From the NCBI GenBank assembly GCA_964392315.1, contig CAYMOT010000001.1, positions 202,403-266,402 on the forward strand: a stretch of 64,000 nucleotides of DNA, read 5' to 3'. Positions 26,675 through 51,098 of the stretch are shown here, piece after piece. Each line of letters starts with the position of its first letter. The stretch's first letter is position 1. This DNA comes from an uncultured Candidatus Saccharibacteria bacterium. GTDB taxonomy: Bacteria; Patescibacteriota; 4484-211; JAGQKX01. The position numbers and the translations under genes are program-made. The notes beneath the pieces are model-generated. The model searched no databases. It was given only the letters and a program-made list of their open reading frames with translations, and was not told the DNA's origin.

Positions 26675-27762
26675 TCACCAAGATCTCCTTAGAGAGCTTT
26701 AGAAATTTCACTAATTTTTCTGCTGAGTTAGGGCACACTACAGTGGCGCTTGGCCAAAACGCGGTAGGGAAAAGCACTATACTAGAAGCGATTGCGTTGT
26801 TTGGAGGATATCGATTTACCCGGTCGTTATCTGAACTTATTCAATGGGGGAAGCCTTTTGCACGTACAGATCTTGTAATACGTGATAGGGCATATTCTAG
26901 TATGCGCGTTGTCGTACGTCTACGAAACTTGTCTATTGTCGGAGATGATCAACTCATAAGCGTGAATGAAGGAGCAGCTTGTCTACCTATTGTCTACTTC
27001 TCGCCACGAACCGTAACTTTGCTGGAAGATTCGCCGTCATTGCGGAGACGTTTTTTTGATCATGTTTTGTCTACCATATCTCCTGAGTATCGGCATGCGC
27101 TTCGTGTATATCAGCACACGTTGCGGCAACGAAATGCGTCACTAAAACAATCAAGAGCGTCTCAGCATATGGTGTGGGAGGCAGCGCTCGCAGAGCATGG
27201 ATCGTATGTGCAGATTATGAGAAATTGGCTCGCACGAACGTTGAGCCAACAGTTAGAGTTTAATGGTGAACTTGTGTACCACATGAGCCCACAGAGTGGC
27301 CAGCCACTTTTGCCCCAGAGTGGTGATTGGGTAGATAATATTAAAACGCACAGGCAAAAACTACAAGAATTTTTAATTACTAAGTGGTCCGTGTTGCGGG
27401 AACGGGAAATGCACGTTGGATTTACACTGATGGGTGCACAACGTGATGACTGGTGGGTAACTACCGTAGAAGAGGAACGACAGATTAACCTGGGAACTTT
27501 TGGTTCTCGAGGCCAGCAACGTATGGCAATCGTCGCGCTTCAATTTGCGGTGCTTCGACTGTTAGAAGATCTGTTGGAGTATAGACCAATATGGTTATTG
27601 GACGATGTTTTTTCGGAACTAGATACGTTTCATCAAGAAAAAGTTATTGAGCGACTATCGCAGTATCAGACGGTTATCACGTCAGCGCATGAAGAATATC
27701 CGGGGATACACGCAGTTCGAGAGTTATCTGATGTACATACAATCAGGCTTGGAGATCATTGA
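26671..27762 (+). CDS. recF: DNA replication and repair protein RecF. ATG at 26671; the track starts at a GTG at 26641.
   Basis: MITKISLESFRNF N-terminus, Walker A (LGQNAVGKSTILEAI), SMC-like signature (LGTFGSRGQQRMAIVAL), and Walker B (IWLLDDVFSELD). Confidence 0.88.
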   Translation: MITKISLESFRNFTNFSAELGHTTVALGQNAVGKSTILEAIALFGGYRFTRSLSELIQWGKPFARTDLVIRDRAYSSMRVVVRLRNLSIVGDDQLISVNEGAACLPIVYFSPRTVTLLEDSPSLRRRFFDHVLSTISPEYRHALRVYQHTLRQRNASLKQSRASQHMVWEAALAEHGSYVQIMRNWLARTLSQQLEFNGELVYHMSPQSGQPLLPQSGDWVDNIKTHRQKLQEFLITKWSVLREREMHVGFTLMGAQRDDWWVTTVEEERQINLGTFGSRGQQRMAIVALQFAVLRLLEDLLEYRPIWLLDDVFSELDTFHQEKVIERLSQYQTVITSAHEEYPGIHAVRELSDVHTIRLGDH

Positions 27763-29975
27763 TTCGGTGGATCGTTGAGTGGTTGGTCTAGGTCAGGTAT
27801 GTCGCTTGATGCCATCGTATCACTGAGCATATCTGCAGTTAACCCATCAGATGGGCCTTCAGATGGAGCTTGTGCCTCAGCGGTTTCTGACGCCGGAGCG
27901 ATTGGCGCGTCTACAGGTTGGTTCTTGCTTGCTGCGGCAGGCGAAGGTTCAAAAGTTTCTCCTTCAGGGGTAACAGGAACAGTTGCAGGTTCATTTGATG
28001 TGTCCGTTTCTTCTGGCGACTCTGGTACTGTTGTCGCAAAAGTAAACTCTTCATCGTCACCAACTTCCTGTTGCGATATATTCAAGCGTTCGAGTTCTTT
28101 TTGTTGTTTCTCCAACTCCATGGCTTCGAGTTCAGCGGGGTTTGTCGTTACCAGTTGATGTTCATCCTGTGATGCGATTACCTGCATTGCAACATGCGCT
28201 TCTCCGGCAAAAAACAATCCTTCACCAACATTTGCAGATAATAGAAGACCTCGTTCGCCTTCGGACAAGAAAAAGAGCTCAGTTAATTGGTTAATCGCTG
28301 TGGGTGATTGCTTAAATAACACTTGAATAGATGCATTGGTTACAACTGCTTTTCCTTTATCAACGCTCAAAAAGTCTTCAACATCTTGTGTGATAGTAGA
28401 TAGGCCAAGATAATACTTTCTTCCTCTTTTTGCGATACTATGCAAAAAGTTTGCACTATCCGGGTGCTTCATCATAAACCACGCTTCGTCCACGATGAGA
28501 ATCCTCTTTCTGCGATCTCTACGCACGCGCGTCCAAATATAGTCCAGTACCATGAACATACCAAGTGGACGAACACTCTCTTCGAGATCACGTATTCCAA
28601 ACACGGTGAATGTATTATGAATATCGATATTTGTATGACTATCAAAAAGGCCTTTTGCTGAACCTAACACATACGGTTGCAAACGATCGGCAAGCAATTT
28701 TGCTTCAGGGTCTTCCATGCCGAGAAGTGTTTTGTACATGTCTTCAAGAAGCGGCGGTTCCAATTTCTGAGTGTCTGGATCCTGTGTAATTCCTTTTAAC
28801 CGGTATGTCTCGAGGAATGCTCGATCCATGACCGCTTCTTCGCTTGGATTTAACTCGCCCATCATGACTTTGAGCATTGAGTGCAAGGTGAGTACTTTAA
28901 GGCCAAGTTCGTCCTCACCTTCTTCGTACACTTGTGATAGGTCAAATGGGTTAATTTTACTGTCGGAATTAAAATCAAGCGCAATGAACTCTCCGCCGAT
29001 AGACTCAGCCATAGTCCGATACTCATTTTCAGGGTCGATGATAATAATTTCAGTACCGAGCATGAGGGAGCGGAGTGCTTCAAGTTTTACAAAGAAGCTT
29101 TTTCCTGCACCAGATTTAGCAAAAACTACCATATTCGCGTTTGCCAAACTGAACCGGTCGAAAATTATTAAACTGGCATTGTGTTCATTAATTCCGTACA
29201 AAATCCCCGTATCTGATGTGAGACTAGAAGAAGTAAACGGAAAGGTTGTTGCAATAGAGGTTGTATCCATGTTTCGGTACACTTGAACAATATCTTGGAA
29301 GAGCGGTAGGGTAGATCTGAAGCCATCTTCCATTTGAAGGGTAGTTTTACGCGCAACAAGGAGTACCGAACCAAGCACGGATTCTAATTGTTTAGAGATA
29401 AGGTCGAGTTCTTCAAGCGATTCTGCAGGTAGTGTGATATAGAGCGCAAATTGGAAAAATCGTTCACGTTCTGCGACCAACTCTTCTTGCAACGCACGTG
29501 AATCTTGTAAGGCGAGTTGTACGCCAGGATCAAGAATGCGTCCTTGTTGTGCTTCAATATTTAACTCAGTCTCCATTTCGGTAATCTTTCTACGCAAGTT
29601 TTTAAGCACAACTTGGGCATCAACAGGATAATAATAAACCGATATATCGAGAGCGTGTGGAAAATTAATAAGCGGGGATAGCCAGTTTGCGCCTACTTCA
29701 CGAGGATATCCTGCAATGAAGAATGAGCGATAGTACGTATTACCGATCTGGAGATGGTTAAAATCATGCTCAATTCCAGAAGGGGCGATAAGGTCACGTA
29801 TGGTTAAAAGCCCTTGTGCGAATTTTTCTGCTTTCTCTCTTGCTTCTTCAAGCTCTTTTTGTGCAATAGACACCTCGGGATTTGATGCATCTCCTGATGG
29901 CGAGACACTTGTACTGGTTTTTTTACCAGGTCCGGGAAGCAACTTATTGACGAGGGCAGCGACAGGGTTTTTCAT
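27756..29975 (-). CDS. VirB4/TraC/CagE-family type IV secretion/conjugation ATPase, with a long acidic Pro/Ser-rich C-terminal tail.
   Basis: The N-terminal domain is typical of VirB4 (...YYRSFFIAGYPREVGANWLSPLI...). Walker A (VVFAKSGAGKSFFV), Walker B (RILIVDEAWFMM), and the C-terminal RecA-like region. The last ~120 aa are low-complexity (TVPVTPEGETFEPSPAAASKNQPVDAPIAPASETAEAQAPSEG...). Confidence 0.85.
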   Translation of the reverse strand: MKNPVAALVNKLLPGPGKKTSTSVSPSGDASNPEVSIAQKELEEAREKAEKFAQGLLTIRDLIAPSGIEHDFNHLQIGNTYYRSFFIAGYPREVGANWLSPLINFPHALDISVYYYPVDAQVVLKNLRRKITEMETELNIEAQQGRILDPGVQLALQDSRALQEELVAERERFFQFALYITLPAESLEELDLISKQLESVLGSVLLVARKTTLQMEDGFRSTLPLFQDIVQVYRNMDTTSIATTFPFTSSSLTSDTGILYGINEHNASLIIFDRFSLANANMVVFAKSGAGKSFFVKLEALRSLMLGTEIIIIDPENEYRTMAESIGGEFIALDFNSDSKINPFDLSQVYEEGEDELGLKVLTLHSMLKVMMGELNPSEEAVMDRAFLETYRLKGITQDPDTQKLEPPLLEDMYKTLLGMEDPEAKLLADRLQPYVLGSAKGLFDSHTNIDIHNTFTVFGIRDLEESVRPLGMFMVLDYIWTRVRRDRRKRILIVDEAWFMMKHPDSANFLHSIAKRGRKYYLGLSTITQDVEDFLSVDKGKAVVTNASIQVLFKQSPTAINQLTELFFLSEGERGLLLSANVGEGLFFAGEAHVAMQVIASQDEHQLVTTNPAELEAMELEKQQKELERLNISQQEVGDDEEFTFATTVPESPEETDTSNEPATVPVTPEGETFEPSPAAASKNQPVDAPIAPASETAEAQAPSEGPSDGLTADMLSDTMASSDIPDLDQPLNDPPNQ

Positions 29976-29980
29976 AAAAT

Positions 29981-30670
29981 TTAGCCAATGTTTGGCTTAA
30001 CAATTGTACTCGTGTAACCGAGGATATCATTCCGTAATGCGTCATTTTGTCCGCTCTCTGGGTTATAAATTTCGTAGAATAACCGTATAAGTTCTTCTGT
30101 CGTGAGTTGGCGCACACCTACTCCGAGTCTACGAAATTGCCAAAAAAGTTCCTTTGTTCGCTGTCCAAAGACCTGTTGTGCTTTTGCGAGGTCGTCATCG
30201 GAATAGGTAGTAACAACTTTTTCTTTTCCAATAAGCTTAAAAAGCGGATCGAGCAAACCCTGCGAGGCCTGTTCGGTCACCTTTTTTATATGTGGTACGA
30301 CTACATAGAATTTCTTAAAAAGAACCGTGTTTTCTGACACCAGCTCTTGGATAAAGGTAATATAGTTATCCAATTGCTGTCGCAAAATAGAAGTAGGTTG
30401 TAATCTTCGAAAAGACTTAAGATACTCAATATAATTTGTAATATCTACTTGGCGGGTGCGGATAACCACTTGCATAGGAAAGTCAAGCGAGTTGATGAGG
30501 TTCGCATAAGAATAAATAGCTGCGTCTTGCTCGGCTTCAGACAAGAGATCAAAGTTGATTGCCTGTGCTTCAATGACAATGCGAAATTTTCCTCCAGTGA
30601 GAATGAGTACATTGTCTTTTATATCTACGATATCAAGATGGTTTTGTGCCGTTCCAAGGACTCCAGACAT
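29981..30670 (-). CDS. Hypothetical cytoplasmic protein encoded immediately upstream of VirB4; part of the type IV secretion-like cluster.
   Basis: 229 aa with no transmembrane helix. Its stop is 6 nt from the VirB4 start. No family recognised by eye. Confidence 0.35.
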   Translation of the reverse strand: MSGVLGTAQNHLDIVDIKDNVLILTGGKFRIVIEAQAINFDLLSEAEQDAAIYSYANLINSLDFPMQVVIRTRQVDITNYIEYLKSFRRLQPTSILRQQLDNYITFIQELVSENTVLFKKFYVVVPHIKKVTEQASQGLLDPLFKLIGKEKVVTTYSDDDLAKAQQVFGQRTKELFWQFRRLGVGVRQLTTEELIRLFYEIYNPESGQNDALRNDILGYTSTIVKPNIG

Positions 30671-31932: not shown

Positions 31933-31937
31933 ATATG

Positions 31938-32459
31938 TTACTGTTCTGTTGTAGATGTCTTTCGTACTACTGGAGTATCCTTTGGAAGGCTCCGAGATAG
32001 GGAAGAAATCCTCTCAAGAAAGCGCACCTCGTCTTCAGAATAATCTTTTTGATTTTCCTGTGTCCTCCAGAAGTCCAAAAAGTTTTCTAAGTCAGATGCT
32101 TTCTTTGGTGGCGTTTTCAGTCGTATCTTGGGAACTACGTAGGACGGGAGGAGAAAAGTAGGAGGAATCTCTTCCTTTTCCCACACTCTTATCGTTGGTT
32201 TAGAGATTGCCTGAAAGAAATTTAATATCCATACGTCTGTCCTACGTCCATCGAAACTCGCCAGGGCCAATGCAATAAATACTGGTGCAGTAATGGCAGA
32301 CCCTATCCAGCGTATTATATTTGGCAAAGGTATTGAAAATAGGAGTCCTATGGTAACGCCACCGATAGCTAAATAGATAAATTGACGTGGGGTGAAGTTC
32401 CCAATCACCTTACTCTCGTATTCAGTAACATTTTGTGGAATGCGGTGAGTGAATGGCAT
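31938..32459 (-). CDS. VirB3/PrgI-like small membrane protein (putative type IV secretion inner-membrane component).
   Basis: 173 aa with two adjacent N-terminal transmembrane helices (FIYLAIGGVTIGLLFSIPL and ITAPVFIALALASFDG). It is located just upstream of VirB4, as VirB3/ConD-like proteins are in Gram-positive conjugation systems. Confidence 0.4.
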   Translation of the reverse strand: MPFTHRIPQNVTEYESKVIGNFTPRQFIYLAIGGVTIGLLFSIPLPNIIRWIGSAITAPVFIALALASFDGRRTDVWILNFFQAISKPTIRVWEKEEIPPTFLLPSYVVPKIRLKTPPKKASDLENFLDFWRTQENQKDYSEDEVRFLERISSLSRSLPKDTPVVRKTSTTEQ

Positions 32460-33738: not shown

Positions 33739-33742
33739 AGAT

Positions 33743-37351: not shown

Positions 37352-39640
37352 TTAAGGGTTAACAAAAAGATTTCCCAAAACAAGTTCAGGATAATATCTA
37401 AATCGTGCAAAAAAGTTACCTTCGCGCAATTCTTGCCCGGGTACTCCAGCAAAACAACTTGATTGATACATATTGTCCGAGCACCGTTCTCTCCCAATAG
37501 CACCATTTGCTCCTGGAGGCACCCCGTCTTCGTTTGCAGACACAATTTCATACTGCAGGTGAGTATCTCCAGGGGAACCGGTATCTCCCATAACCCCGAG
37601 AAGATAATTGCGAGGGACGTACATTGCATATTCAGAACCAAAATCCAATTTCTGGTTGAAAGGGTAGTTAAAAGTATCTACTGCTCCATCACCATCAGTA
37701 TCCATATTGTGTAATTGTTGATGTCGAATATCGAACGTAAGTGAACTTTCTGTTAGATGAGAATAACGGGTAATAACGTCGGGAATATGGTCACGGTTAA
37801 TATCTGACTCTACTTGAACGGTTACCCCTTTATCTGGATAATCCGGGTCTCGGCCTGCAAAAGTTATCCATCCTGAGTGTGTAGTATATACGTTTGGCGG
37901 CTTAACCTGATTAAAGGCACGTTCGATATCTATCGCCGGGTGCAAATAATCACCTGCTCTGGGGCGTCCATCAAGGGGATACGTTTCACCTTCTCCGGGA
38001 CAATACAAATATTCGTCATAGAGGCTTCGTTCTCCTTCAAGCCAGCGCTGTCGTCCAAGTTCTTGTGCATAACTAGTGTTCCCCCAGTTTTCCTGGATTC
38101 TACCAGTTGTTGGCCAACCAAACGGCACTCCTTCGGTATCTACCGGATTGCCTATAGGTAATGAAACATTTAGTACTGTTCTTCCATTCCGGGTTCCTTC
38201 AGTAGTTCCGCCATATTCAAACTGATACGTAATCGGACCGATGATGCTGTTATTAGATGAGGCGTTATAACCGCACCCTCCCATATCTGGAGAAGAAACA
38301 TCGCGGTATTCAAAGAAATAATCTCTAAATTCTTGGACTGTTAGTGGGCGCTCTAAAAGCAAGTACGCATCCTGACCCGAGTAGTTCTCCATGTCAGCCG
38401 GACAGCGCTCTCCTTCTGAACCATCTGCGCCCTGGCAGATAAAATTATAATCACGGGGTATATTTGACCCCGGTCCCATAGGTAACGGTACAGAGGGAAT
38501 TCTATACCGTACAGTGTCAGGATCATATTGAAAATAGTCCCGATGTTCTCCATCAATAGCGGGGGACGCCGGGTCGTCTGGACCTAGGTTATTGCCAACA
38601 GACTCTTTGTGTGCAGGTAATGAATTGCCATGTTTATTTAAGCGGGCAGGCATTCCTGCGGCAGTTGTAAAATTTAGCGCCCCATCACTAATGTCTATGT
38701 TGTGTGGCCATTCTCTTCCATCCTCCGCTTGTCTAAAGACTCTAATCGTATCGCGTTCAAACATAGTATTCCCGTAATTTTGTATATGTAACATCATTAT
38801 GAAGTCATTGCTGTGGTATATCATTGTTTGGAATTCAATGTAGTTCCACCGTTCTTCGGGAACTGGCACAACTACTGGGGTAGGGGGAATTCCTGGAGGT
38901 ACCCAAGGGGGGGGAGGGGTGGGAAGTTCCTCATCGGTACAGGCGATCTTTAGGCATTTGTAGACATATCCGTCCCTTCTGATCATTTTGTTAGGAATTG
39001 CACCTGGTAGAATAAATTCATTTGGTCCTGGCGAATCTGCAGGAGGTCTTGTAACGCCACTTGCGGCTCGAGTAAAATCAGCATTATCCAGATCAGCAGT
39101 GCCGCCACACCAGCCTCTTAATGCGTGCTCTATAGTTGCGTGATATGTGCTATTTTGGTCTCCGCATTGATTACACGCTACAGAACCTCGGTGTGGCCGA
39201 CCAAATTGGTTTAGCTCACAATAATCGCATGCCTCTTGGATAACTACCTCTCCACACGATTCGCAACAACCGTTTTCTATAATATATTCACGATGGATTG
39301 GTCCGAGCGGATCCTCGTCAACTATTGCGTCTGGTTGTATTCCGCGATAGAAAGTGTCCCATTCCACCCAGGCTTTTAAGAATTGTCCTGCTCCCGCAGC
39401 TGGAGGTGTACTTGGGCCTGGAGGTGCAGGTGTTCCCGGTGCGAAAGGAATGACACTTCCACCAAGTTCTACATTTCGCCCTTGAAAAATTGATCGTACT
39501 CGATCTCCAAGGTTTCCAAAAATTCCAGTACTTCCCGAATTAAATCCATCAAATATCCCTGCATCCACAGGGTTTAAAGAAATCAGAAAAAGTAACAAAC
39601 AGAAAGAGAACGTGCTAAGGTTTTTGTATATTTTATCCAT
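37352..39640 (-). CDS. Secreted Cys-rich protein with a C-terminal M23/LytM-family peptidase-like domain (second His of HxH replaced by Gln).
   Basis: Signal peptide (FSFCLLLFLISLNPVDA). HxxxD motif (YLHPAIDIE), a YxHL-like RYSHLTE, and DTGSPGDTHLQYEIV, which aligns to STGPHLHFEV. An N-terminal ~250 aa Cys-rich region (CCESCGE..CDYC..CNQCGD). Confidence 0.6.
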   Translation of the reverse strand: MDKIYKNLSTFSFCLLLFLISLNPVDAGIFDGFNSGSTGIFGNLGDRVRSIFQGRNVELGGSVIPFAPGTPAPPGPSTPPAAGAGQFLKAWVEWDTFYRGIQPDAIVDEDPLGPIHREYIIENGCCESCGEVVIQEACDYCELNQFGRPHRGSVACNQCGDQNSTYHATIEHALRGWCGGTADLDNADFTRAASGVTRPPADSPGPNEFILPGAIPNKMIRRDGYVYKCLKIACTDEELPTPPPPWVPPGIPPTPVVVPVPEERWNYIEFQTMIYHSNDFIMMLHIQNYGNTMFERDTIRVFRQAEDGREWPHNIDISDGALNFTTAAGMPARLNKHGNSLPAHKESVGNNLGPDDPASPAIDGEHRDYFQYDPDTVRYRIPSVPLPMGPGSNIPRDYNFICQGADGSEGERCPADMENYSGQDAYLLLERPLTVQEFRDYFFEYRDVSSPDMGGCGYNASSNNSIIGPITYQFEYGGTTEGTRNGRTVLNVSLPIGNPVDTEGVPFGWPTTGRIQENWGNTSYAQELGRQRWLEGERSLYDEYLYCPGEGETYPLDGRPRAGDYLHPAIDIERAFNQVKPPNVYTTHSGWITFAGRDPDYPDKGVTVQVESDINRDHIPDVITRYSHLTESSLTFDIRHQQLHNMDTDGDGAVDTFNYPFNQKLDFGSEYAMYVPRNYLLGVMGDTGSPGDTHLQYEIVSANEDGVPPGANGAIGRERCSDNMYQSSCFAGVPGQELREGNFFARFRYYPELVLGNLFVNP

Positions 39641-39646
39641 AGGGCA

Positions 39647-42600
39647 TTATGGTGTTCGGCCTCCGCCGCCGCCAGTCCCACCTCCTCCACCAGAAGGAGC
39701 AGCGGGTGTAGGTGTGGCTGCAAAGTCTCTGTTGTATCGAGCACCTTCTTGGTAGAGTTTTTTGAGGCCTTGAATGTCTCTTCTGTCTCGTTGGCCTGGT
39801 AAAGGAGGAAGTGCACCTTGAACGTCAGCCGGATTTTGCTTAAGTGCCAAGGCCATTGCCTCCATATATATCCCGTGTGCATCACCTGGGGCCTTCTTAA
39901 GTTCGCTTGCAGATTTGACACTTCCTAGGCTTGCGTTACCACTTCTTCTACCCAGTTCTGCTAAATATTGGGCGTGTGTACCTCTAAATTCACTCGTACT
40001 AAGCTTGACAGCACCCGCCTTTGTTCCAGCAGGTGCAATTCCGCTGTCAACTTCTCTTTTGCTCCATCGCGCGAGTTTGCCACCTGAGTATTGTGGAAGT
40101 TTTCCAAAATTGATGATCCGATTAGGATCATTTATTGATAGATCAAGACCAGTGTGTATTGCTTTCTGTTGTTGCGCTCCTAGGCCGGTGCGGCCTACGA
40201 TGTCAACGCTTGGGAGAACCTTTTTACGCAATTGCTGTTCAGCTGCTGCGTACTGTTGCCCTCCGTAGAGTCGTTTCAATAGCGGAGCATCAGTTGTGGG
40301 TAGATTGTAATCGAGGTCAGTGCCCGCTTTTATTCCCGCTGCTTCTGCTTTTTTGAGAGAAGCGTCAAATTTACGTTCACGTTTTTCTTTTGCCTCAGCT
40401 ATTCGGCTACCAGCAAAAGGCAACCGTTCGACCAAGGGTCTGACATATGTTTCGCCCCGTTCTTCAGCCTCTCTTTTGAGTCGTGTCTCTCGGCCTCTTT
40501 GCGTAGCAGAGCGTATGTATCCTTTCTCGCGCCGTTCCTCTACTGCATCTAGGCTTGTGTAGTCAGACACACCGGAGGCCATATTTTGTACCTTTCCTCC
40601 CAATCCTTTCCCGATACCTTGTAGCATTCCTAATGCCTGTCCAGCAAGTCCACCACCACCGAGAAATTGCGCGGCAAGACTAGCGCTCTTTGTACTCATA
40701 AAGAGCGTCCCTCCGCCGATCAAGAATACTCCCGCCTGGACAAACAAACTATCAGCCTCTGCTGTTTTGCTGACTAAAAGAATTCCAATGGCGATAAATA
40801 ATGCGGTGATTGTTTGCATGAATGCCAGAGGTAGCAGCGTCTTAATCCATAGGTTTCTCATACTTCTGAACCAAGGAAGCACGGAAAGCGCAAGAAATAG
40901 GGGAGCTACGATAGTAATTACCCAAATAATAAGGTATCTCCCGAGGAATACTGCCAATAACGATACGACTAATCCTAGAATTGCCAAAGCACCGGCCAAC
41001 ACCGCTCCGATAATTGGAATTATTATTGAACCTCCGGTTCCTACAACCGAAGTAAGAAAAGTTGCAACCCCGGTTGAAATTACTGTGCTTAAGAATGATG
41101 TAATTGCAACAATCCCTCCAGCTGCACCCGCTCCTGCAATTGCGTTGGTAGAAATTCCGGTCGTTTGTAATACATCAAAAATAATTGCAAAAATCCAGGC
41201 TGTTAGAATATTATTTACATCCAAAACTCCCTGTACAATCAACACACTGAGATTTGCAAATATAATACCAATCACCAGCTGTGGAAGCATGACATTAGCG
41301 CCCCAACTTTTTATGTCATACCCCAAGGCATGGTTTATCCCGATTAACAGGAGCAGGAATACAAAGATGATGTTCGCAACTCCCCTGATGATGTTCCAGG
41401 TAACAATAACGCCTGTCGAAACGGTTAATGGTTCGAGAATAAGTATGTTTCGAAGGGTTTGAAGCCCTTTGCCTGCGAGTTCTGTGAAACCGTTTGCAAT
41501 TCTGCATCCGAGTACTGGTATCCGAACTGCTTCAAATCCTTTAAAGACGAAGCCAATTCTAATCCCTACATTGTACATATGTTTCTCTGGTTCAGTCCAA
41601 CCGGCAGGTACCAAATTCCGTTGCAACTCGGCCTGATGTTCTGCTTCAAGTCTTTCCTCGAGAATTTGGCAGGGTGGGCGGAAATCAGCAGTCCATGTAT
41701 TTGGTGTCCCAACAGCGACTCCCTGTTCGACATCTGGTCGTGTCACGAAGGTTTCAGACAACACTTTATCGTCGGCCGTGACACTAATAGTGTACGTGTT
41801 TGAGGCCTCGACATTTCTTCTACAGAGTTCTGGTGAAACAAAACTTCCAGTCGGACAAGCTGTGTCTGGGTCTCTCATCTCAAGAGGAAATATTAAGCTC
41901 CACTCACCAGATTTGTCTCTTAACTGGTCTTCACTGACATTATAGAGGTGTTCACCTAAGCTGTTGTGGACTGTCGCTGTTTGATAAGAAGATGCCCCTT
42001 TAAAACGAACAATAATATCAGCAACGGTCGGAGTAGCGGCATAGGCTCTATCAACTCCAGGCATAATAGTGCGTACAGGTATAAACCCTAGTAACTTATA
42101 TCCTGATGGAACAGGAGGGGTGTATTGAGAGAGAGTAACTGCATTTGCTCCGGTAAATTCGACAAGAGCAGAACCGTTGTAGGGTGTTATTATTTCTTTA
42201 GGATTTAATCCAGTACCGTCAATCATAATACGTAATGAAAGCGGGGGATCAATCAACCCACCGGTAATACCTTCAATAGGTACCAATTTGTCATGCGGGA
42301 TATGTATGAAGCACTTGCTATCAGCAGAGAACTTCTCTATATTGTCTGCGTCGATATTTCGAATCTCATTTGGGTCTGCGAGTGAAACGGTCGCATTATA
42401 AGAACGACAATTTCGTTGGGCGTTCAGGCCTGCCGGGACACTTGTATTTTTAATAACTTCAATTAGTATACCTTTTACCGTGGGATCACTTTTAGGTGCG
42501 GTTGCCGTAATGTCGACTTGAAGTGGTCCGTTTGTGCTAATAACTTCTTTGGTTTTTATCGGAGTTTTGTCCCATAGTGGTTCGTTAAGAAACGGGTCGA

Positions 42601-44047
42601 ATGTAGCTCCTCGAGGATTTGTGGAATAACCAACCGTGTCGTCATAAAAAATGTAGGTAGAGAAACTGTTTTGTGTGTAATCTTGTGGGTTAGTACCCGA
42701 CGTTGTGACTATGTCAGTTGCACAATTACCCAAAACAGTTAGAGACACGCGAGGGTACGTGAACGGTTGTCTATTGTCACATTGTGTACCGAGTCGTCCC
42801 CCATCGACCATTCCATATGACTGTGTATTGACCATGCTCACATTTCCTAGATTCGGCCCTGCAAATGCCCTCCCTGATTGTTGGATTACTCGTCCCCAAA
42901 GAATAAGTTTGTTCTGCAGTAATGCAATGTCATTCCTAATAGCTGTTGGTTCAACCAACTTGTACCAATCGTTCCCTAAATCAACTGTTCCATTTATATC
43001 TGTATCACGTGAAACTCGCACGACACCAAAGCCTATTTGTGTTGACTTGATTTTAGTATTGTTGTCCATAAGATCAGATTGATATGTCGTGCCCCCTTCT
43101 CTTCGCCAAATTGTTACGGCGTATACTCCGGGAGGTGCGAAAGCCATAAATATCCGATCGTTTCGCGTATGGTCAGCTGTGTTAGTAATTGCCTCAAGAG
43201 GGTGTGTGGTGCGTCCAGCAACGATAAGGTTGTCACCAGGATACAAGTCTCTACTTCCAGCGTTAATATAATCAAACCACACCCTGCGAGCCACTAGTTC
43301 ATAGGCACTATCATCAGAAAAATTAACACCTCCATACATTTGTACATGTTTAGACGTAATCTTCAGTGTAGTTGTCGGTATGAGCGGGAAGGTATTAATA
43401 TTATTTGCTATATCAACCCTTGTTTCTTGTGTTAAAAAGGATAATCCTAAACGCACTTCTTCCTGTAGCTGGGTGTAGATAGCGGTTAAATTGGAAGCAT
43501 CACCAATGTTGTATGAAAAAACAGAACCAATGCGGTCGGGATCAGGGTTGGTAGTCGAAGGTAGTTGTGGCATTCGAAAAGGCACATCAAGGCCTTGGAT
43601 TGCTGTCGCATCGCAAGGTGCTACTACAAAACTGACACAGTCAGTACGTAGAACCCTGCCCGATCCGACATCGTAGCGGAATGGGAAATAGACGCCGAAT
43701 TTTTGTCCATTAGGAAGACCCTGCGCTTGAAACGATCCATCCGCTCTAACTTGTGTGCGAACCGCAAGGTTGTTGATGATAAATGAAGAGCCTCCCCAAC
43801 TGTCATATGCATACACGTATACAGGAAGACCAGCCATTCGTTGATAGGCAGCGCTGGGGTCATACGCACTTCCTACAAAGGCAGGTATGAATTGTCCAGA
43901 AAACACCGCCGTATTGTTTGCCGACTGCGACGATTGTGCAGAAACTGACGGCGGTGTTAAAACCTGGACAATGGCGATGGTCAAGAGAAGTACGCTTACT
44001 AATCTCACGCATCTTTCCACTAATAAAAGATATCGACTTGGCAGCAT
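39647..44047 (-). CDS. Giant VirB6/TrbL-like polytopic channel protein: signal peptide, a ~840 aa extracellular N-terminal domain, a multi-transmembrane core, and a cytoplasmic C-terminal region ending in a Gly-rich tail.
   Basis: 1466 aa. Signal or anchor (LVSVLLLTIAIVQVLTPPSVSAQS). Residues ~850-1120 contain six to eight hydrophobic helices (IIFVFLLLLIGINHALGYD..., GGIVAITSFLSTVISTGVATFL..., AVLAGALAILGLVVSLLAVFLG...), typical of VirB6/ConG. C-terminus ...PAAPSGGGGGTGGGGGRTP. Confidence 0.6.
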   Translation of the reverse strand: MLPSRYLLLVERCVRLVSVLLLTIAIVQVLTPPSVSAQSSQSANNTAVFSGQFIPAFVGSAYDPSAAYQRMAGLPVYVYAYDSWGGSSFIINNLAVRTQVRADGSFQAQGLPNGQKFGVYFPFRYDVGSGRVLRTDCVSFVVAPCDATAIQGLDVPFRMPQLPSTTNPDPDRIGSVFSYNIGDASNLTAIYTQLQEEVRLGLSFLTQETRVDIANNINTFPLIPTTTLKITSKHVQMYGGVNFSDDSAYELVARRVWFDYINAGSRDLYPGDNLIVAGRTTHPLEAITNTADHTRNDRIFMAFAPPGVYAVTIWRREGGTTYQSDLMDNNTKIKSTQIGFGVVRVSRDTDINGTVDLGNDWYKLVEPTAIRNDIALLQNKLILWGRVIQQSGRAFAGPNLGNVSMVNTQSYGMVDGGRLGTQCDNRQPFTYPRVSLTVLGNCATDIVTTSGTNPQDYTQNSFSTYIFYDDTVGYSTNPRGATFDPFLNEPLWDKTPIKTKEVISTNGPLQVDITATAPKSDPTVKGILIEVIKNTSVPAGLNAQRNCRSYNATVSLADPNEIRNIDADNIEKFSADSKCFIHIPHDKLVPIEGITGGLIDPPLSLRIMIDGTGLNPKEIITPYNGSALVEFTGANAVTLSQYTPPVPSGYKLLGFIPVRTIMPGVDRAYAATPTVADIIVRFKGASSYQTATVHNSLGEHLYNVSEDQLRDKSGEWSLIFPLEMRDPDTACPTGSFVSPELCRRNVEASNTYTISVTADDKVLSETFVTRPDVEQGVAVGTPNTWTADFRPPCQILEERLEAEHQAELQRNLVPAGWTEPEKHMYNVGIRIGFVFKGFEAVRIPVLGCRIANGFTELAGKGLQTLRNILILEPLTVSTGVIVTWNIIRGVANIIFVFLLLLIGINHALGYDIKSWGANVMLPQLVIGIIFANLSVLIVQGVLDVNNILTAWIFAIIFDVLQTTGISTNAIAGAGAAGGIVAITSFLSTVISTGVATFLTSVVGTGGSIIIPIIGAVLAGALAILGLVVSLLAVFLGRYLIIWVITIVAPLFLALSVLPWFRSMRNLWIKTLLPLAFMQTITALFIAIGILLVSKTAEADSLFVQAGVFLIGGGTLFMSTKSASLAAQFLGGGGLAGQALGMLQGIGKGLGGKVQNMASGVSDYTSLDAVEERREKGYIRSATQRGRETRLKREAEERGETYVRPLVERLPFAGSRIAEAKEKRERKFDASLKKAEAAGIKAGTDLDYNLPTTDAPLLKRLYGGQQYAAAEQQLRKKVLPSVDIVGRTGLGAQQQKAIHTGLDLSINDPNRIINFGKLPQYSGGKLARWSKREVDSGIAPAGTKAGAVKLSTSEFRGTHAQYLAELGRRSGNASLGSVKSASELKKAPGDAHGIYMEAMALALKQNPADVQGALPPLPGQRDRRDIQGLKKLYQEGARYNRDFAATPTPAAPSGGGGGTGGGGGRTP

Positions 44048-44080: not shown

Positions 44081-44455
44081 TTAAGCTACCCCAACCAGCG
44101 ATTGAAGCCCAGGGATAAGCCCAATAATAAACCTCCAGAGGGCATAAGCTGCTGCTACAATGATAAGTCCGATTACTGCGTTTGTAATACGCTTTCGTGC
44201 TGCTCCTACGTTATCTTCATTGTCACCTGCGGTTAGATAGGTGAATGCACCCCAGAATAAGTAAAGCAATACTGCGACAGCGGCAACAACGAAAACAAGG
44301 TCAATGCCACGTCTGATTAAATCTCCAAAATCAGTAAATCCGGTACTTGGTCGAGAAATACCTGTGAGTAGCTGTGCGTGAACGGGAGCGGCTGTTGCTA
44401 ATGTTGCAATGCCTGTAGAAGCTGTAATCAATGCACTTTTTATTTTATCTGTCAT
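44081..44455 (-). CDS. VirB2/TrbC-like pilin paralog 1 (signal peptide plus two hydrophobic segments).
   Basis: Signal (ALITASTGIATLATAAPVHAQ). Hydrophobic segment 1 (LVFVVAAVAVLLYLFWGAFTYL). Conserved LTAGD motif. Hydrophobic segment 2 (AVIGLIIVAAAYALWRFIIGLIPG). Confidence 0.5.
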   Translation of the reverse strand: MTDKIKSALITASTGIATLATAAPVHAQLLTGISRPSTGFTDFGDLIRRGIDLVFVVAAVAVLLYLFWGAFTYLTAGDNEDNVGAARKRITNAVIGLIIVAAAYALWRFIIGLIPGLQSLVGVA

Positions 44456-44522
44456 GCGGTTCCACCTCCTTTGATACTTAACTCAGAATAGCATACGCTA
44501 TACGGCGTCGCAATAGCTGTGA

Positions 44523-44930
44523 TTAGGTAATGAAATTTTTTAATCCAGGGATCAAATCTAGAATGAGCTTGAAGATAATAAATACGCTGCCTACACCCAC
44601 AAGCCCAACAATAGACCATGTAATGTTACTACGTGCTTTTTCCAGTTTCTCAGTACTATCCCCAGCGGTTAGATAATCAAACGCTGCCTTAAAGAAGTTA
44701 AAGAGCAATATTATGGCCCCAAACCCAAGGGCGCCCGTTACCATAGTGGTAATGAGTTGACCTAAGACTAACAATGTGCAATGAGGCCACGACAGGATTT
44801 CGCCATCAGGTAAGCCGTCACAGCTAGGAAGAGTCCCTCCGCCTTGAGCATACGCGTTATGAGAGTGAACCGTAAACGTAAGAAACAAGACAAATACTAT
44901 TGGTAAGAATAGAAGCAGGTTTTTCTTCAT
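44523..44930 (-). CDS. VirB2/TrbC-like pilin paralog 2.
   Basis: Signal (LLLFLPIVFVLFLTFTVHSHNAYAQ). Same architecture with YLTAGDSTEKLEKARSNITWSIVGLVGVGSVFIIFKLILDLIPG. Confidence 0.5.
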   Translation of the reverse strand: MKKNLLLFLPIVFVLFLTFTVHSHNAYAQGGGTLPSCDGLPDGEILSWPHCTLLVLGQLITTMVTGALGFGAIILLFNFFKAAFDYLTAGDSTEKLEKARSNITWSIVGLVGVGSVFIIFKLILDLIPGLKNFIT

Positions 44931-44934
44931 TGTA

Positions 44935-45330
44935 TTAAGATCCTGTAATTACAATCTTCCATGAGTCAGGAAGGATGGACTCAAATGCCCTAATAAAAAC
45001 ATATCCACCAACTACTATAACAAGCCCCACCATAGACTGGGTGAGTGCCTCGCGGCCGTTTTGCAATCTTTGCGGGTCTCCTTGAGCAGTAATAAACATA
45101 AAAAATCCGGCGGTAGCTCTATATATAGAGACTAAAACGCCAATTAAGATCATTAAGTCAAGCATAAAATTTGCAAAATCTTCGACATTGACACAACTAT
45201 CGGTGATCGCGACGTAGGTGGCATCGTTAGGACAATTAACGTTTGGCGTGGGGCGCTGGGCGTATACGGTATTCAGGGAAGCTAGAATGAGGAAAAGAGC
45301 GACACATCCTGGAATTAATATTCTCTTCAT
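44935..45330 (-). CDS. VirB2/TrbC-like pilin paralog 3. ATG at 45330 gives a canonical signal peptide; the track start at 45399 is over-extended.
   Basis: MKRILIPGCVALFLILASLNTVYAQ signal. FITAQGDPQRLQNGREALTQSMVGLVIVVGGYVFIRAFESILPD matches the other two paralogs. Confidence 0.5.
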   Translation of the reverse strand: MKRILIPGCVALFLILASLNTVYAQRPTPNVNCPNDATYVAITDSCVNVEDFANFMLDLMILIGVLVSIYRATAGFFMFITAQGDPQRLQNGREALTQSMVGLVIVVGGYVFIRAFESILPDSWKIVITGS

Positions 45331-45395
45331 ATAGGTATCATACCAACACAAACATAAATGTGAAATGTACACATTTGTGTAAATGTACCGAAGTG

Positions 45396-47624
45396 TCACT
45401 GTACTTTAACTAAAATACTTTCTCCTTGCTCAAATACATGAGTCCCTTGGGAGAGGAGAAGGTCGGTCTGAATATCTGGATATTTGTCTCTTTCAAGTTT
45501 TGAGATGTAGATGTATGAAACATTATACTTCCTTAATAACTCTGCTCTTTTTGTCTGGTCCGTCGTTGTATAGATCACACGTACATCTTCAACCCGTTGA
45601 GCGACCGTATCTGAGCCGAATGTCTCTAACACACGTGATGGAGGTTCCACTGGTTCTGCATACGAGCCTCTCCATAACCATTCGTGTACTGGCCACCCCA
45701 TAACCGTGGGGAGTCCAGTATTTGATGCGATTCGGGCATAGTCTGTATAGCTGTCTCCGACTGCTTCAACAATAACTGGCTGTCCTGTAATATTTTTGTT
45801 TATCCAATCAATCGCCGCGGCATCATGTTTAAGTGTTTTCGTTACGTATGCAGTGCCATTGAGGCCTTTATATTCGCTGAATGCGTCGGTTACGGTTTTT
45901 ATTGCCATGTAAGGATACAGTAACGTAGAACCGATGAGCAGATAAGACAGCAACACATCGAGTCGCCAGAGAACTTGGAGTGATTCTTTTTTTATGGTGT
46001 AGAGCATCCGAATAAATGCGTATGCGCTTGCAATAGATAACAAAATCCACGCTGCATAATAGAGTTTGAACATCGTATTGGCACGATAGTAATCAGGTAC
46101 GTAAATATCTTTGACGTATATGATTTCTGGTGCTATTAAGAGTGCAATTCCTAATCCGATTAGTAAAAGAGCGAATGTATCGCTCGAATTCCTCGTTGCT
46201 TGTTCTGGCGTGTTGCCGTCAGAAGGTTCGTTCTTAACGGAGATTGATACTTTGAGCGCCCCTGCAATTTTTTGTACGATTCGTTCTTTCATGTTTCTTA
46301 TGTGCAGAAAGCGTGCCAGTGTTTGACGCAACGCAAAAATAACGAAACTGACCGCGATAAACAGATACATTCCCCAAAGTATGAGGAATTCTTTGAGCGG
46401 AGAGAGGGTCGTTACTTTTCCGATGCCATCAGAAATTGGCTTTACGGTGAGCCAAAATGGCGCAAACAGTCCAACACTTCCTATGAGCAAAGGTATCGCA
46501 AACAGGGCGGCAGTCTCTAACGCTTCCCACCAGGCCAAAAGCCTGCTACGTGTAGAGTGTGCAATAGTGTGATACGCAAGGTACACAAACACACAGCCAC
46601 TGAGTACAAGGTATATAGGAAAATCCCAAGAGTTAGTGGCATAGCTTGTTCCTACCATAAGCGCGAGGATAGCAAGAGACAAAAGTAGGCGTTTGTTCTT
46701 GAGGCTGTGTGCACTAATGCTCAGGTTGTCCCGTGAAATAAAGAGATTACACAATATTCCAAGAGCTACGAGAACAAATGGAATATTGCTCACGTGTGCA
46801 TGCAAATCCGCCACGATAAAACTGTATACCGGGAATTCGTTGATAGTGAAAGGAATCAACCTGCTCGCTGTAGCGTACCAGTAGGTGTCTAAGGAGGAGA
46901 TATGAAGTACTGTATGAAGATTTCCGGTCAGTGCCGTAAGGATACCTCCCAGAATACCCCCAATAAATATAATAATTTTGTGAATATGCGGGAATACATT
47001 TCTGAGTAGTGTCGCGGTGATGCTGAAACTTCCCATGAATGATATTGCAAACAGGTACGCAATCTGTAGGTTATAAGTAAAATTAGGAGGTAGGTGTGAA
47101 ATCTGCGTAATTACCGCTGCGACGTAGTGTCCAAAGTAGTAATAATTAATTGGTTCGCTTGCAAAAAAATGGTCTACTGGTGGGAAATACTCAGCACGCA
47201 AGATTGAGAGCATAAACCCGTAGTCCATAAATTTTTCCAAACCATGAATGTCTGGGTTGTATGCACGGACTATGCTCCAAAAAACAAGAAGGCACAAGAA
47301 TAATACCTCACTAATGATGACTACCTTCCATGGTATTGCAGAAATAGTTGATTTTATAGATCTGGAGTGAAAAATCTGTACGCTCCAAATGAGTACCGAA
47401 ATAAGAACGGCAATAAGGATGGTGTGTAGTGGAGAGAAGCGTAGTACTCTTGTAATAGCGAGGAGCCATACAATATATGAGACTATCCCAATGCCTACCA
47501 CTTTGCTGAGGATCCATCCCTTATCAACAAATCGAGGGAGTATCGTCTTGCTCAACGGCCAGAAGCCAACTCCGAGCGCAAAGATTGCGGTATAAAATTG
47601 TAGAAATGCATAAGGATCAGACAT
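45396..47624 (-). CDS. Large polytopic membrane protein (742 aa) with a soluble C-terminal domain; GT-C-type glycosyltransferase-like (family unassigned).
   Basis: About fourteen to sixteen transmembrane helices through residue ~560, then a ~180 aa extracytoplasmic C-terminal domain. It overlaps the pilin gene by 4 nt and is the first gene of the block upstream of the type IV secretion-like genes. Confidence 0.5.
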   Translation of the reverse strand: MSDPYAFLQFYTAIFALGVGFWPLSKTILPRFVDKGWILSKVVGIGIVSYIVWLLAITRVLRFSPLHTILIAVLISVLIWSVQIFHSRSIKSTISAIPWKVVIISEVLFLCLLVFWSIVRAYNPDIHGLEKFMDYGFMLSILRAEYFPPVDHFFASEPINYYYFGHYVAAVITQISHLPPNFTYNLQIAYLFAISFMGSFSITATLLRNVFPHIHKIIIFIGGILGGILTALTGNLHTVLHISSLDTYWYATASRLIPFTINEFPVYSFIVADLHAHVSNIPFVLVALGILCNLFISRDNLSISAHSLKNKRLLLSLAILALMVGTSYATNSWDFPIYLVLSGCVFVYLAYHTIAHSTRSRLLAWWEALETAALFAIPLLIGSVGLFAPFWLTVKPISDGIGKVTTLSPLKEFLILWGMYLFIAVSFVIFALRQTLARFLHIRNMKERIVQKIAGALKVSISVKNEPSDGNTPEQATRNSSDTFALLLIGLGIALLIAPEIIYVKDIYVPDYYRANTMFKLYYAAWILLSIASAYAFIRMLYTIKKESLQVLWRLDVLLSYLLIGSTLLYPYMAIKTVTDAFSEYKGLNGTAYVTKTLKHDAAAIDWINKNITGQPVIVEAVGDSYTDYARIASNTGLPTVMGWPVHEWLWRGSYAEPVEPPSRVLETFGSDTVAQRVEDVRVIYTTTDQTKRAELLRKYNVSYIYISKLERDKYPDIQTDLLLSQGTHVFEQGESILVKVQ

Positions 47625-47632
47625 CGTTTTGG

Positions 47633-49327
47633 TTATCGAAGCTTATTATAGAGTAATGGTTGTATATTTGTAGCGTCAAATGCTGTTTTTTTAAATATCT
47701 GTACTCGTGGATGGTCATATACAGTAAAACTTTCATCGGCTTGTTGGTCGTTTCTGGAGAAACCGAAAAGATTGGGATAGGAAGTAATTTCTTTGACTTT
47801 TGAGAATCCTAACGTGCCGTCAAAAAGCAACTTGTAGTATTCAATTGTCGCGGGGTATTGGTCGGGTAGATTGGGGATAGAGTCATATAGTCGGTTGCTT
47901 GCGATAATAATATATTCAACGTGATCGAGTGTCTGAACCAACTGGGTTATCTTTGCTGGTGAATCGGGGATATATAACTCTAACGATTTGTGCTGATAGT
48001 ATTCGGAATCATAAAGTGGCAAGCTTCGATCCCAGTGCTCTACACCGAGTGTAGCGTTTCCCGGAATGTTAGAGTGAATCCACTCGCTTGCTTGAATCCA
48101 GGTGTGTGGTTTTGTGTAAATGGATATGAATGCGATTGTCCACCACATACTCGGAATGACTATTAGTAGTGTAAGAGCTGTTTGTAGCATCAGAGAACGT
48201 ATGTGGAGTATATGTACCCCGACATACGCAGCACTCATGGCAAGAAGTGGATAGAGCGGTAAGTAATATCGCATGAACTTCACCGCAGAACTGCCGAGCG
48301 ATAAAAAAAGGACACTAAAAAACAGCACGAACCACACAGAAGCCTCGAAGCGCTTGGTTTTAGAAGTCTTGATTATAGATGAATACGTAAGCGCAATCAT
48401 TCCAGTGATACCAAGAAATGTAAATGAAGGACCAAGCCCCCATCTGAATATCTGTACGACAGGATACAAGAAGGGTACTGTGTCGATATATTGAATAGTG
48501 TAGGGGAAAACAGTAGCATCCGAACGCATATCCAGTTGTGAGCCAATCTGATTGGAAAAGGTGTCAAAATCTATATACGCATAGGGTTGTAAGACAAAAT
48601 TTGTGATTAGGAATAGAGCTGCTGCCGTTATAAATAGTTCCTTAGCCTGTAGAGCAGTAAACGTATTTTCTTTCATATTACGCGAAATAAGGTAGCGGTA
48701 TACGATACTCGAAACTAAGAACGGGATGAGGATAACAGCTGTAAATTTTGTAGCAACTGCCATGCTCGTTGTGACACTAGCCCAGAGTAGATATTTTTTC
48801 TTTCCGTCCTCAGTATAGTGCAATATAAGAAGCAGCGTACCCATCATCCAAAACACCATTTGTCCATCGACGGTATAAAAGTGGGCATTTTGTATGGGGA
48901 ATACTGATAGTGCATAGACTGCCATAGCAAGTACACCTAGCAAGGTGGAACGAAAAATTTTTCGTGACAAAAATAAAAGCAGTATCAACGTGCCAATATC
49001 AAATAAGGCTGAAAGCGGGCGGCCAACCTTATAGAGGTTTCCATATTCAACAATATTTGGATCAATAACCCCCATAAGGTACGCAAGACCTTTTAGGAGA
49101 TACAACGGAAAGGAGCCATAGGCGAAAAACTTGGGATTAAGTGGACTCTCGGCGGTAAAGAAAGTCGAAAAATTTAGAGGCAACTCGAGTTGAAAAACCA
49201 TATTATAAATATGTGCTTCATCCGGATGGGGGTAGTAGCCACCATCCCAATTCAGGGGGAATGCGCGAAGCAGAAATGCCCCAAAAATAATGAAAGCCAA
49301 TATAACGGAGCGGTAGTTGTCTTTCAT
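47633..49327 (-). CDS. PMT/ArnT-family (GT39/GT83-like) membrane glycosyltransferase, paralog A.
   Basis: DE motif in the first extracytoplasmic loop (GGYYPHPDEAHIYN) as in protein O-mannosyltransferases/ArnT. About twelve transmembrane helices. C-terminal extracytoplasmic domain. Confidence 0.65.
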   Translation of the reverse strand: MKDNYRSVILAFIIFGAFLLRAFPLNWDGGYYPHPDEAHIYNMVFQLELPLNFSTFFTAESPLNPKFFAYGSFPLYLLKGLAYLMGVIDPNIVEYGNLYKVGRPLSALFDIGTLILLLFLSRKIFRSTLLGVLAMAVYALSVFPIQNAHFYTVDGQMVFWMMGTLLLILHYTEDGKKKYLLWASVTTSMAVATKFTAVILIPFLVSSIVYRYLISRNMKENTFTALQAKELFITAAALFLITNFVLQPYAYIDFDTFSNQIGSQLDMRSDATVFPYTIQYIDTVPFLYPVVQIFRWGLGPSFTFLGITGMIALTYSSIIKTSKTKRFEASVWFVLFFSVLFLSLGSSAVKFMRYYLPLYPLLAMSAAYVGVHILHIRSLMLQTALTLLIVIPSMWWTIAFISIYTKPHTWIQASEWIHSNIPGNATLGVEHWDRSLPLYDSEYYQHKSLELYIPDSPAKITQLVQTLDHVEYIIIASNRLYDSIPNLPDQYPATIEYYKLLFDGTLGFSKVKEITSYPNLFGFSRNDQQADESFTVYDHPRVQIFKKTAFDATNIQPLLYNKLR

Positions 49328-51090: not shown

Positions 51091-51098
51091 AGGGTAAC

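Follow-up and report, generated by a model that had tools for sequence, protein, structure and literature searches.

A probable VirB6-type protein with a large predicted N-terminal ectodomain in a Patescibacterial type IV secretion operon

What could be the role of a 1466-residue protein in which a polytopic membrane core is preceded by a very long N-terminal domain? The question is raised by an open reading frame (ORF) on the minus strand (39647..44047) of a 64,000-nucleotide stretch of DNA from an uncultured Candidatus Saccharibacteria bacterium (contig CAYMOT010000001.1), which is referred to below, in its whole length, as the window. The ORF lies among genes of a type IV secretion system (T4SS). 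Such systems are widespread in Patescibacteria and are found beside the replication origin, and neither what they transport nor how they engage the host has been established (PMC10633639, PMC12102498). We consider it likely that the protein is the inner-membrane subunit of VirB6 type in a chromosomal T4SS that derives from conjugation systems and bears pili, in an ultra-small Patescibacterium most probably of the WWE3 lineage; this judgement takes in the mechanism proposed below together with the assignment itself. On this reading the protein is an unusual version of a known T4SS part and not a new type of machine.

Layout, topology and membrane core

The ORF begins with an ATG codon, and its predicted extent is confirmed both by the ORF list and by homologues aligning from the first residue: Met1 is common to all 25 of the full-length homologues in the alignment, which measure 1330-1720 residues. 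The same order of N-terminal module, transmembrane core and tail recurs in about 40 cluster representatives (1270-2040 residues if complete). Read from its N-terminus, the protein comprises a Sec-type signal peptide or signal anchor (residues 1-37, 43937..44047), suggested by hydropathy and by the hydrophobic N-terminus of relatives; an N-module, the putative distal head (residues 38-330, 43058..43936), delimited by sequence identity, invariant columns and an AlphaFold2 (AF2) model; a variable chain of beta-sandwiches, the putative stalk (residues 331-790, 41678..43057), delimited by identity, the model, Foldseek matches and cysteines; long helices, predicted to be extracytoplasmic, before the first membrane helix (residues 791-884, 41396..41677), placed by the models, charge and cysteines; a TrbL/VirB6-like polytopic core (residues 885-1118, 40694..41395), recognized by hydropathy, AF2, Foldseek, hhalign and charge bias; and a basic, low-complexity, poorly conserved tail, predicted to be cytoplasmic (residues 1119-1466, 39650..40693), distinguished by composition, identity and net charge.

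The Kyte-Doolittle scan of the protein places an N-terminal hydrophobic stretch at residues ~13-37, with a peak of 2.27 at residues 13-31. The hydrophobic region reads LVSVLLLTIAIVQVL and is followed by TPPSVSA-QS; the V-S-A pattern by itself suggests that a signal peptide may be cleaved between VSA and QS. Of the relatives, 83-93% likewise begin with a hydrophobic stretch. Residues ~38-868 contain no hydrophobic segment, and a dense hydrophobic block occupies residues ~868-1119, where hydropathy resolves seven or eight segments in the core. The seven helices that we propose span residues 885-908, 921-942, 976-999, 1006-1036, 1038-1060, 1070-1092 and 1101-1118. Across 83 sequences the net charge is negative before the first helix, positive at 909-920, negative at 943-975, positive at 1059-1070, negative at 1093-1100 and positive after 1119, an alternation consistent with seven membrane helices, the N-terminus outside and the basic tail inside. 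An extracytoplasmic N-terminal domain is also supported by the signal-peptide-like N-terminus and by conserved cysteine pairs within the domain; with hydropathy and charge bias added, its location outside the cell appears very probable. The polytopic topology with an external N-terminus and an internal C-terminus is thus the one expected by the original prediction, which had placed the N-terminal domain outside the cell and the tail in the cytoplasm.

The affinity of the core emerges through intermediates. A profile of residues 835-1140 (22 sequences), searched against 1.84 billion proteins, matches 24,077 cluster representatives at E<=1e-3, 12,676 of these at E<=1e-10, which makes the core a common domain. 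Pfam TrbL is matched by 16 of 45 sampled relatives, themselves matched at E ~1e-28 to 1e-35 by the core profile; the best of these TrbL matches has an E value of 3e-6, and they are collinear with the core and mostly below threshold, distant relatives scoring 14-20 bits. Precomputed matches to TrbL_3 (PF19590) are carried by three relatives (P0125, P0062 and P0097). Profile-profile alignment by hhalign joins the target family to Patescibacterial TrbL-type relatives with a probability of 100 (E 1.7e-45, 288 columns), and these relatives to the TrwI/PF04610 profile with a probability of 70 (E 4e-5, 53 columns). When a hidden Markov model (HMM) of the superfamily was searched against 356 ORFs of pCW3, R388 and pCF10 (first 50 kb, including a Tn916-like insert), a Tn916 Orf15-like membrane protein scored 20.1 bits and TrwI 17.5 bits, the next-best ORF reaching 7.5 bits.

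The fold points in the same direction. The AF2 model of the core, built on 83 sequences, has a predicted local distance difference test score (pLDDT) of 85.5 and a predicted template modelling score (pTM) of 0.78. Among 350,542 PDB chains compared with it by Foldseek, ranks 1-5 are taken by chains of the R388 TrwJ/VirB5-TrwI/VirB6 stalk entries, the best match having a probability of 1.00 and template modelling (TM) scores of 0.41/0.44 over 298 columns. These chains are identified as TrwI/VirB6 because their modelled lengths of 260-272 residues exceed the 226 residues of TrwJ/VirB5. Column counts and comparisons with VirB6-type proteins further single out a signature segment, R-x11-AP-x8-P-x8-W (residues 1037-1067, 40847..40939), in which R1037, P1049 and P1058 are invariant across the 83 sequences and W1067 is present in 81 of them. 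The signature R1037-x11-A-P1049-x8-P1058-x8-W1067 aligns to K..GPLFI..WQPT.RFF..W of TrwI with identical spacing from P to W, and the same segment was aligned in all comparisons with VirB6-type proteins.

A number of results nevertheless weigh against the assignment. The whole protein matches no Pfam family at E<=1, TrbL/VirB6 included, and finds no meaningful match in NCBIfam; the gathering threshold of Pfam TrbL/VirB6 PF04610 (25.9 bits) is not reached by the target, and only 2 of 25 family members attain E<0.1 against that model, with 0.0048 as the best value. Direct hhalign of the family core to the profile of TrwI, the R388 VirB6 (PF04610), is not significant, with a probability of 1.1% and an E value of 0.047 over 91 columns. 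Alignments to single TcpH and PrgH sequences are not significant either, although every one of them fell on the R..AP..P segment, and neither protein was recovered by the HMM searches. PDB sequence searches with the core profile and the full-length profile gave noise or low-complexity tail matches only, and among 72,556 plasmids tblastn found nothing similar to the core. The Foldseek E values of the core are weak (0.026 at best) and the TM scores are about 0.4. For P0125 (locus L017, 10001-12139) a local Pfam-A hmmscan found no family at E<=0.1 despite the precomputed TrbL_3 match, which may be due to a difference between Pfam releases. AF2, finally, merges residues 1009-1054 into one continuous helix, and the helix count is uncertain because the seven-helix topology needs a turn at R1037.

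The resemblance to VirB6/TrbL originally predicted for the core is therefore upheld by a chain of profile-profile alignments, by fold and by gene context, and not by direct alignment to TrbL/VirB6 models, which failed; of the comparison with Gram-positive VirB6-type proteins, PrgH and TcpH yielded nothing significant and the Tn916 Orf15-like protein came out as the top match of the superfamily HMM. Intermediates, fold and synteny together support placing the core in the TrbL/VirB6 superfamily, as a diverged member below the curated Pfam criterion, and both VirB6 homology and a VirB6 role for the target can be held with high confidence.

The predicted ectodomain and the tail

The AF2 model of residues 38-845, based on an alignment of 25 sequences, has a pLDDT of 77.7 and a pTM of 0.75. 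Residues 38-790 of the model consist of 40% strand and 8% helix, and two long helices follow after ~790 (model positions 755-774 and 783-805); a pre-membrane helix is also present in the core model (model positions 8-35). Of the original description of the N-terminal domain as beta-rich up to residue ~840 and rich in Asn, Thr and Gly, the beta-rich character holds, but only to ~790, residues ~792-884 being long helices; Thr (9.3%) and Gly (7.7%) are enriched, and Asn (6.2%) is not notable.

The fold search of this domain returned a chain of CnaB/immunoglobulin (Ig)-like beta-sandwiches. Its PDB matches include the Streptococcus T-antigen Spy0128, BcpA, RrgB and Cna B repeats, as well as the B. 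anthracis TIE protein and the SlaA/SlaB S-layer complex, with E values of 1.5e-8 to 1e-5 and low global TM scores, as only repeated domains superpose. Similar Ig-like or CarboxypepD_reg-like chains appear in viral proteins among the fold matches. As modelled, the ectodomain is a generic chain of CnaB/Ig/CarboxypepD_reg-like beta-sandwiches. The absence of a recognisable family was correctly noted at the sequence level, as judged from Pfam and NCBIfam scans that covered the family members too; CarboxypepD_reg matches are found, below threshold, in 3 of the 25, and the Pfam scans detected no lectin, carbohydrate-binding module (CBM) or known ligand-binding family. The identity of a sortase-type pilin or MSCRAMM was considered and rejected, there being no C-terminal LPXTG-type motif in the protein; the only loose match is an internal LPFAG at residue 1209, in the tail.

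Conservation is distributed unevenly along the chain. Mean pairwise identity is highest in the N-module (47% over residues 38-330), falls to 15-21% over residues 331-845, which cover the middle of the ectodomain and the pre-membrane helices, and amounts to 35% in the membrane core (846-1130) and 15% in the tail (1131-1466). The N-module starts with a CarboxypepD_reg/CnaB-like sandwich, is modelled with a pLDDT mostly of 75-92 and contains the invariant motifs FIPAF.G.AYDP, DGSFQAQGLP and NNINTFPLVP. Four cysteine pairs are conserved in the ectodomain: 137/145 in the N-module, 423/442 and 731/742 in the putative stalk, and 793/848, with an invariant C848, in the pre-membrane helices. The conservation pattern fits a stalk with a conserved head.

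The N-module is confined to the close family. An HMM search found it in 42 of 160 collected proteins, the other relatives of the core lacking it, and N-terminal extensions outside the close family are shorter (median 310 residues). In a search of 5.8 billion sequences, 25 close homologues were found, and the N-module occurs in about 40 cluster representatives; among 185,579 GTDB genomes, 11 species representatives have a relative. Members of this small family are mostly labelled as candidate division WWE3 or, in automated metagenome-assembled genomes, as uncultured Candidatus Saccharibacteria, one short contig being labelled Bryobacterales, and an identical protein is encoded on 4 contigs.

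At the other end of the protein, residues 1131-1466 are hydrophilic (G 14.6%, A 12.2%, R 8.3%, K 7.4%), and the net charge of the tail is positive in nearly all relatives. The tail ends in SGGGGGTGGGGGRTP at residues 1453-1463, and a regular-expression search delimits there the terminal GGGGGTGGGGG tract (39659..39691). Composition, net charge and this search agree with the basic, Gly-rich cytoplasmic tail with a terminal tract that had been predicted. The sole PDB sequence matches of the tail, to huntingtin and SNF5, are compositional. Endings of a similar proline-rich/GGGG/TP type (residues ~1445-1466, window positions 39650-39700) recur in about 8 of 25 homologue tails despite a tail identity of about 15%, examples being PPAGGGGTP and SGGGTSGGNRTP.

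The operon and its surroundings

Three VirB2-like T4SS pilin genes (44935-45399, 44523-44930 and 44081-44455, together 44081..45399) lie directly upstream of the target ORF on the same strand, with matches to T4SS_pilin PF18895 at E values of 1.9e-9, 1.1e-6 and 1.3e-3. The gaps flanking the ORF measure 33 and 6 nucleotides. A pilin gene stands directly upstream of the target homologue in 9 of 10 related loci, and one locus (L008) repeats the entire operon, including the gene upstream of the pilins. Between the pilins and VirB4, no other protein has more than three hydrophobic segments, and the target is therefore the only candidate there for the VirB6 role.

The gene that begins 6 nucleotides past the stop codon of the target encodes a secreted protein of 762 residues (37352..39640, minus strand), a candidate VirB1-like wall hydrolase with an M23 match (PF01551, E 0.016) below threshold. 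Homologues of this gene occur downstream in loci L005, L006, L008, L014 and L016, and in L005 the neighbours carry Amidase_2 and Peptidase_M23. A single-pass protein of 321 residues comes next in the operon order, followed on the same strand by a cellulase-like glycoside hydrolase family 5 (GH5) protein of 886 residues (33743-36403), found by the Pfam scan and recurring in L008. The GH5 and M23-like proteins are candidate wall-degrading (VirB1-like) or host-envelope-degrading enzymes. A 434-residue protein (32677-33981, minus strand) is encoded between the GH5-like gene and PrgI; its ORF as listed overlaps the GH5 ORF by 239 nucleotides, so that its true start is probably a downstream Met, and its N-terminal hydrophobic segments may not be real.

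The remainder of the operon, all on the minus strand, leads to the ATPase. PrgI, a VirB3-like membrane protein of 173 residues (31938..32459; PF12666, E 2.2e-11), is followed within 30673-32459 by a protein of 419 residues in which the Pfam scan finds a C-terminal CarboxypepD_reg domain. This second gene starts 5 nucleotides after PrgI, and its product has a Gln/Glu-rich middle and no signal peptide. In L005 (15481-15960) a single product of 639 residues matches both PrgI and CarboxypepD_reg, and the two genes of the window therefore look split from one protein. Directly upstream of VirB4 lies the gene for a cytoplasmic protein of 229 residues without a Pfam match (29981-30670), in the slot held by a TraC-like protein (PF26593) in loci L017 and L018. 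The VirB4-like ATPase (27756..29975; P-loop_TraG 1.4e-24, CagE_TrbE_VirB 9.5e-5) ends the operon. Its gene is abutted by dnaA (minus strand) and by dnaN and a RecF-like gene (plus strand) at 22175-27762, and the T4SS operon therefore adjoins a likely replication origin. Scans for promoters and terminators gave signals no better than chance.

The relatives P0125 and P0062 stand in a gene order of pilins, TrbL_3, PrgI, TraC-like, VirB4 and recF, with dnaN also beside P0125. Patescibacterial T4SSs are described as monoderm-type, near dnaA, pilin-bearing and mostly without a relaxase (PMC12102498, PMC12857230). The operon of the window corresponds to this description in its VirB4, PrgI/VirB3 and pilin genes, in its proximity to dnaA and dnaN and in that no relaxase or VirD4/FtsK-type coupling domain was found among the window ORFs scanned, several of which have no Pfam match at all. 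The other large window ORFs with a Pfam match are housekeeping genes.

Several neighbouring features may be recorded. Upstream of the pilins (45396-52550, minus strand) lie genes for a DUF2298/chlor_Arch_YYY membrane protein, two PMT_2-like glycosyltransferases and a membrane protein of 483 residues; the DUF2298 gene and the first pilin gene share 4 nucleotides, and this adjacency is seen in L006 and L008 as well. Glycosylation of the pilins or of the Thr-rich ectodomain is a possible function of these enzymes. On the minus strand at 14817-17975, a protein of 1052 residues combining an NAD-dependent epimerase/dehydratase domain with DUF4012 is encoded next to Wzz-like and O-antigen-ligase-like (Wzy_C) genes, in what amounts to a surface-polysaccharide cluster. 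The plus strand bears a tmRNA gene (59037-59447) with the tag peptide GNIKNAIAQAFDNVAAAFMTPALA and a tRNA-Ser(CGA) gene (61882-61972).

Mechanism, alternatives and known systems

What could such a protein do in a secretion system? We propose that Sec would insert it so that the N-terminus lies outside, seven helices cross the membrane and the basic, disordered tail stays in the cytoplasm. On the model of R388, the core could oligomerise into a membrane platform for the extraction of VirB2-like pilin and the passage of substrate, and the tail, facing the VirB4 side, could make contact with VirB4 or with other partners in the cytoplasm. The chain of beta-sandwiches, ~750 residues long and stapled by disulfides, could serve as a semi-rigid stalk across the wall and surface layers, presenting the conserved N-module (residues 38-330) at or near the cell surface, where this head might bind a conserved partner, either the pilus and its pilins or a conserved host-surface structure. 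In a monoderm pilus system without VirB5 or VirB7-10, the part of extracellular stalk or pilus collar would then fall most plausibly to the ectodomain. This stalk or collar mechanism is offered tentatively, as somewhat short of an even chance, and it counts against it that we infer the oligomeric state, the role as pilus platform, the wall-spanning reach and the partner of the head by analogy. A bolder version, which we think rather unlikely, is that in this WWE3-type lineage VirB6 has absorbed the extracellular part of the machine, with the Ig-like arms of the oligomer forming a wall-spanning stalk or collar in the role that VirB5 and the outer-membrane core have in diderms, and the heads coupling the channel to the host. 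If true, it would mean that the envelope is crossed by one polypeptide, and would give a direct handle on host engagement by Patescibacterial T4SSs.

The ectodomain might instead be primarily a host-cell adhesin, in line with the original prediction of a candidate host-contact factor, and its head would be one that binds a receptor of the host bacterium and docks the secretion channel on the host envelope. The fold resembles the stalks of Gram-positive adhesins and pilins, and the pattern of stalk and conserved head would suit such a function; the T4SS loci of Patescibacteria have yielded no adhesin of the PrgB type (PMC12102498), and the T4SS is essential for epibiotic growth of Southlakia epibionticum, the one species tested (PMC10633639). 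Yet no part of the protein is better conserved than the head, with 47% identity against 35% in the core, whereas the tips of host-range adhesins usually diversify, and the high conservation of the head therefore disfavours a rapidly diversifying receptor-binding tip. Nor was any lectin, CBM or known ligand-binding family detected by the Pfam scans, and the organelle implicated in adhesion of Saccharibacteria is the type IV pilus (PMC12102498). As a candidate role, a primary adhesin function seems to us less probable than the stalk or collar, though an alternative of some weight.

The remaining alternatives deny the protein its place in the machine or its integrity as a gene. That it is a surface or S-layer-type protein on an unrelated polytopic anchor, merely located beside T4SS genes, would accord with the lack of a direct match to any VirB6/TrbL model, with the SlaA/SlaB complex among the fold matches of the ectodomain and with the glycosyltransferase-like genes directly upstream; we judge it very unlikely in view of the homology of the core, at a probability of 100, to proteins in the VirB6 slot of other Patescibacterial T4SS loci, of VirB6 chains being the best PDB fold matches, and of the retained adjacency to pilin genes in an operon that holds no other VirB6 candidate. 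Least probable of all, to the point of being negligible, is an assembly or annotation artefact in which the gene of a secreted protein was fused to a TrbL gene. The short N-terminal extensions outside the close family and a 341-residue gene directly upstream of the TrbL_3 gene in one related locus would be in keeping with it, but the identical protein is present on 4 contigs, the uninterrupted architecture and length are kept in at least 25 homologues from independent assemblies, and the conserved cysteine pair 793/848 spans the junction.

If the VirB6-type assignment is right, the locus shows one way in which VirB6 escapes HMM surveys, its core having diverged below Pfam thresholds, and the core alignment could seed a profile for locating 'missing' VirB6 genes in the genomes of candidate phyla. 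By this prediction, the VirB6 slot has room for a surface-exposed domain of very large size whose head is strongly conserved. The head could be expressed for use in binding assays, in raising antibodies that label it in situ and in structural work.

How does the protein compare with what is known? By fold, the ectodomain shares with the Spy0128 T-antigen, BcpA, RrgB and Cna B repeats a tandem chain of CnaB/Ig-like beta-sandwiches (probability up to 1.0), with no sequence similarity to these Gram-positive pilins and MSCRAMM stalks (7-10% identity; TM ~0.1-0.25), and, unlike sortase-anchored pilins and MSCRAMMs, the target lacks an LPXTG sorting signal and would be anchored by its own polytopic core. 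TrwI of R388 and VirB6 of A. tumefaciens (PF04610) have a polytopic helical core of similar size, and TrwI, the best PDB fold match, has the P-x17-W segment in the same helix-loop. TrwI, however, has 342 residues without a large ectodomain or long tail, and works with VirB5 and an outer-membrane core, neither of which is evident among the family-matched genes of the target operon. VirB6 has five membrane helices and seven are proposed for the target, so that the count may differ; the predicted orientation agrees with the periplasmic N-terminus and cytoplasmic C-terminus of VirB6.

Large hydrophilic additions to a VirB6-type core are also found, as in the target, in the VirB6 paralogues of Rickettsiales, in TcpH and in Tn916 Orf15; a C-terminal cytoplasmic extension, as predicted for the target, is present in TcpH. 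Extended VirB6 proteins in the sense of Alvarez-Martinez and Christie are defined, as cited in PMC12857230, by a core with at least one large central or C-proximal hydrophilic domain, and in Anaplasma the extension reaches 4,322 residues at the C-terminus (PMC7648143). The target does possess a C-proximal hydrophilic tail of ~340 residues, but its far larger extension is N-terminal, apparently Sec-led and extracytoplasmic, a kind of addition that this definition does not cover. The extended proteins of Gram-positive and Rickettsiales systems, to which the original prediction had likened the target, are therefore not close analogues, their extensions being central or C-proximal (PMC12857230, PMC7648143). 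A limited literature search found no description of a VirB6 with a Sec-led N-terminal Ig-like ectodomain of ~800 residues and a conserved head.

The nearest counterparts are the VirB6/TrbL-type proteins of other Patescibacteria (Quinonero-Coronel et al. 2025, PMC12102498; Wang et al. 2023, PMC10633639), T4SS and VirB6 homologues having already been known from this group (PMC7427843, PMC10633639, PMC12102498). They occupy the same slot between pilins and PrgI/VirB4, share the recF-dnaN-dnaA neighbourhood with the target and have a homologous core and are laid out, like the target, as hydrophobic N-terminus, ectodomain, core and tail. They differ in an ectodomain with a median of 310 residues, against ~800-1000 in the target family, and in the absence of the family-specific N-module, and the core of the target is too diverged for Pfam TrbL. 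This divergence fits the published observation that in some classes VirB6 is 'scarce or absent', which has been put down to extreme divergence (PMC12102498). The protein elaborates on a component already known, and T4SS biology as currently pictured does not change.

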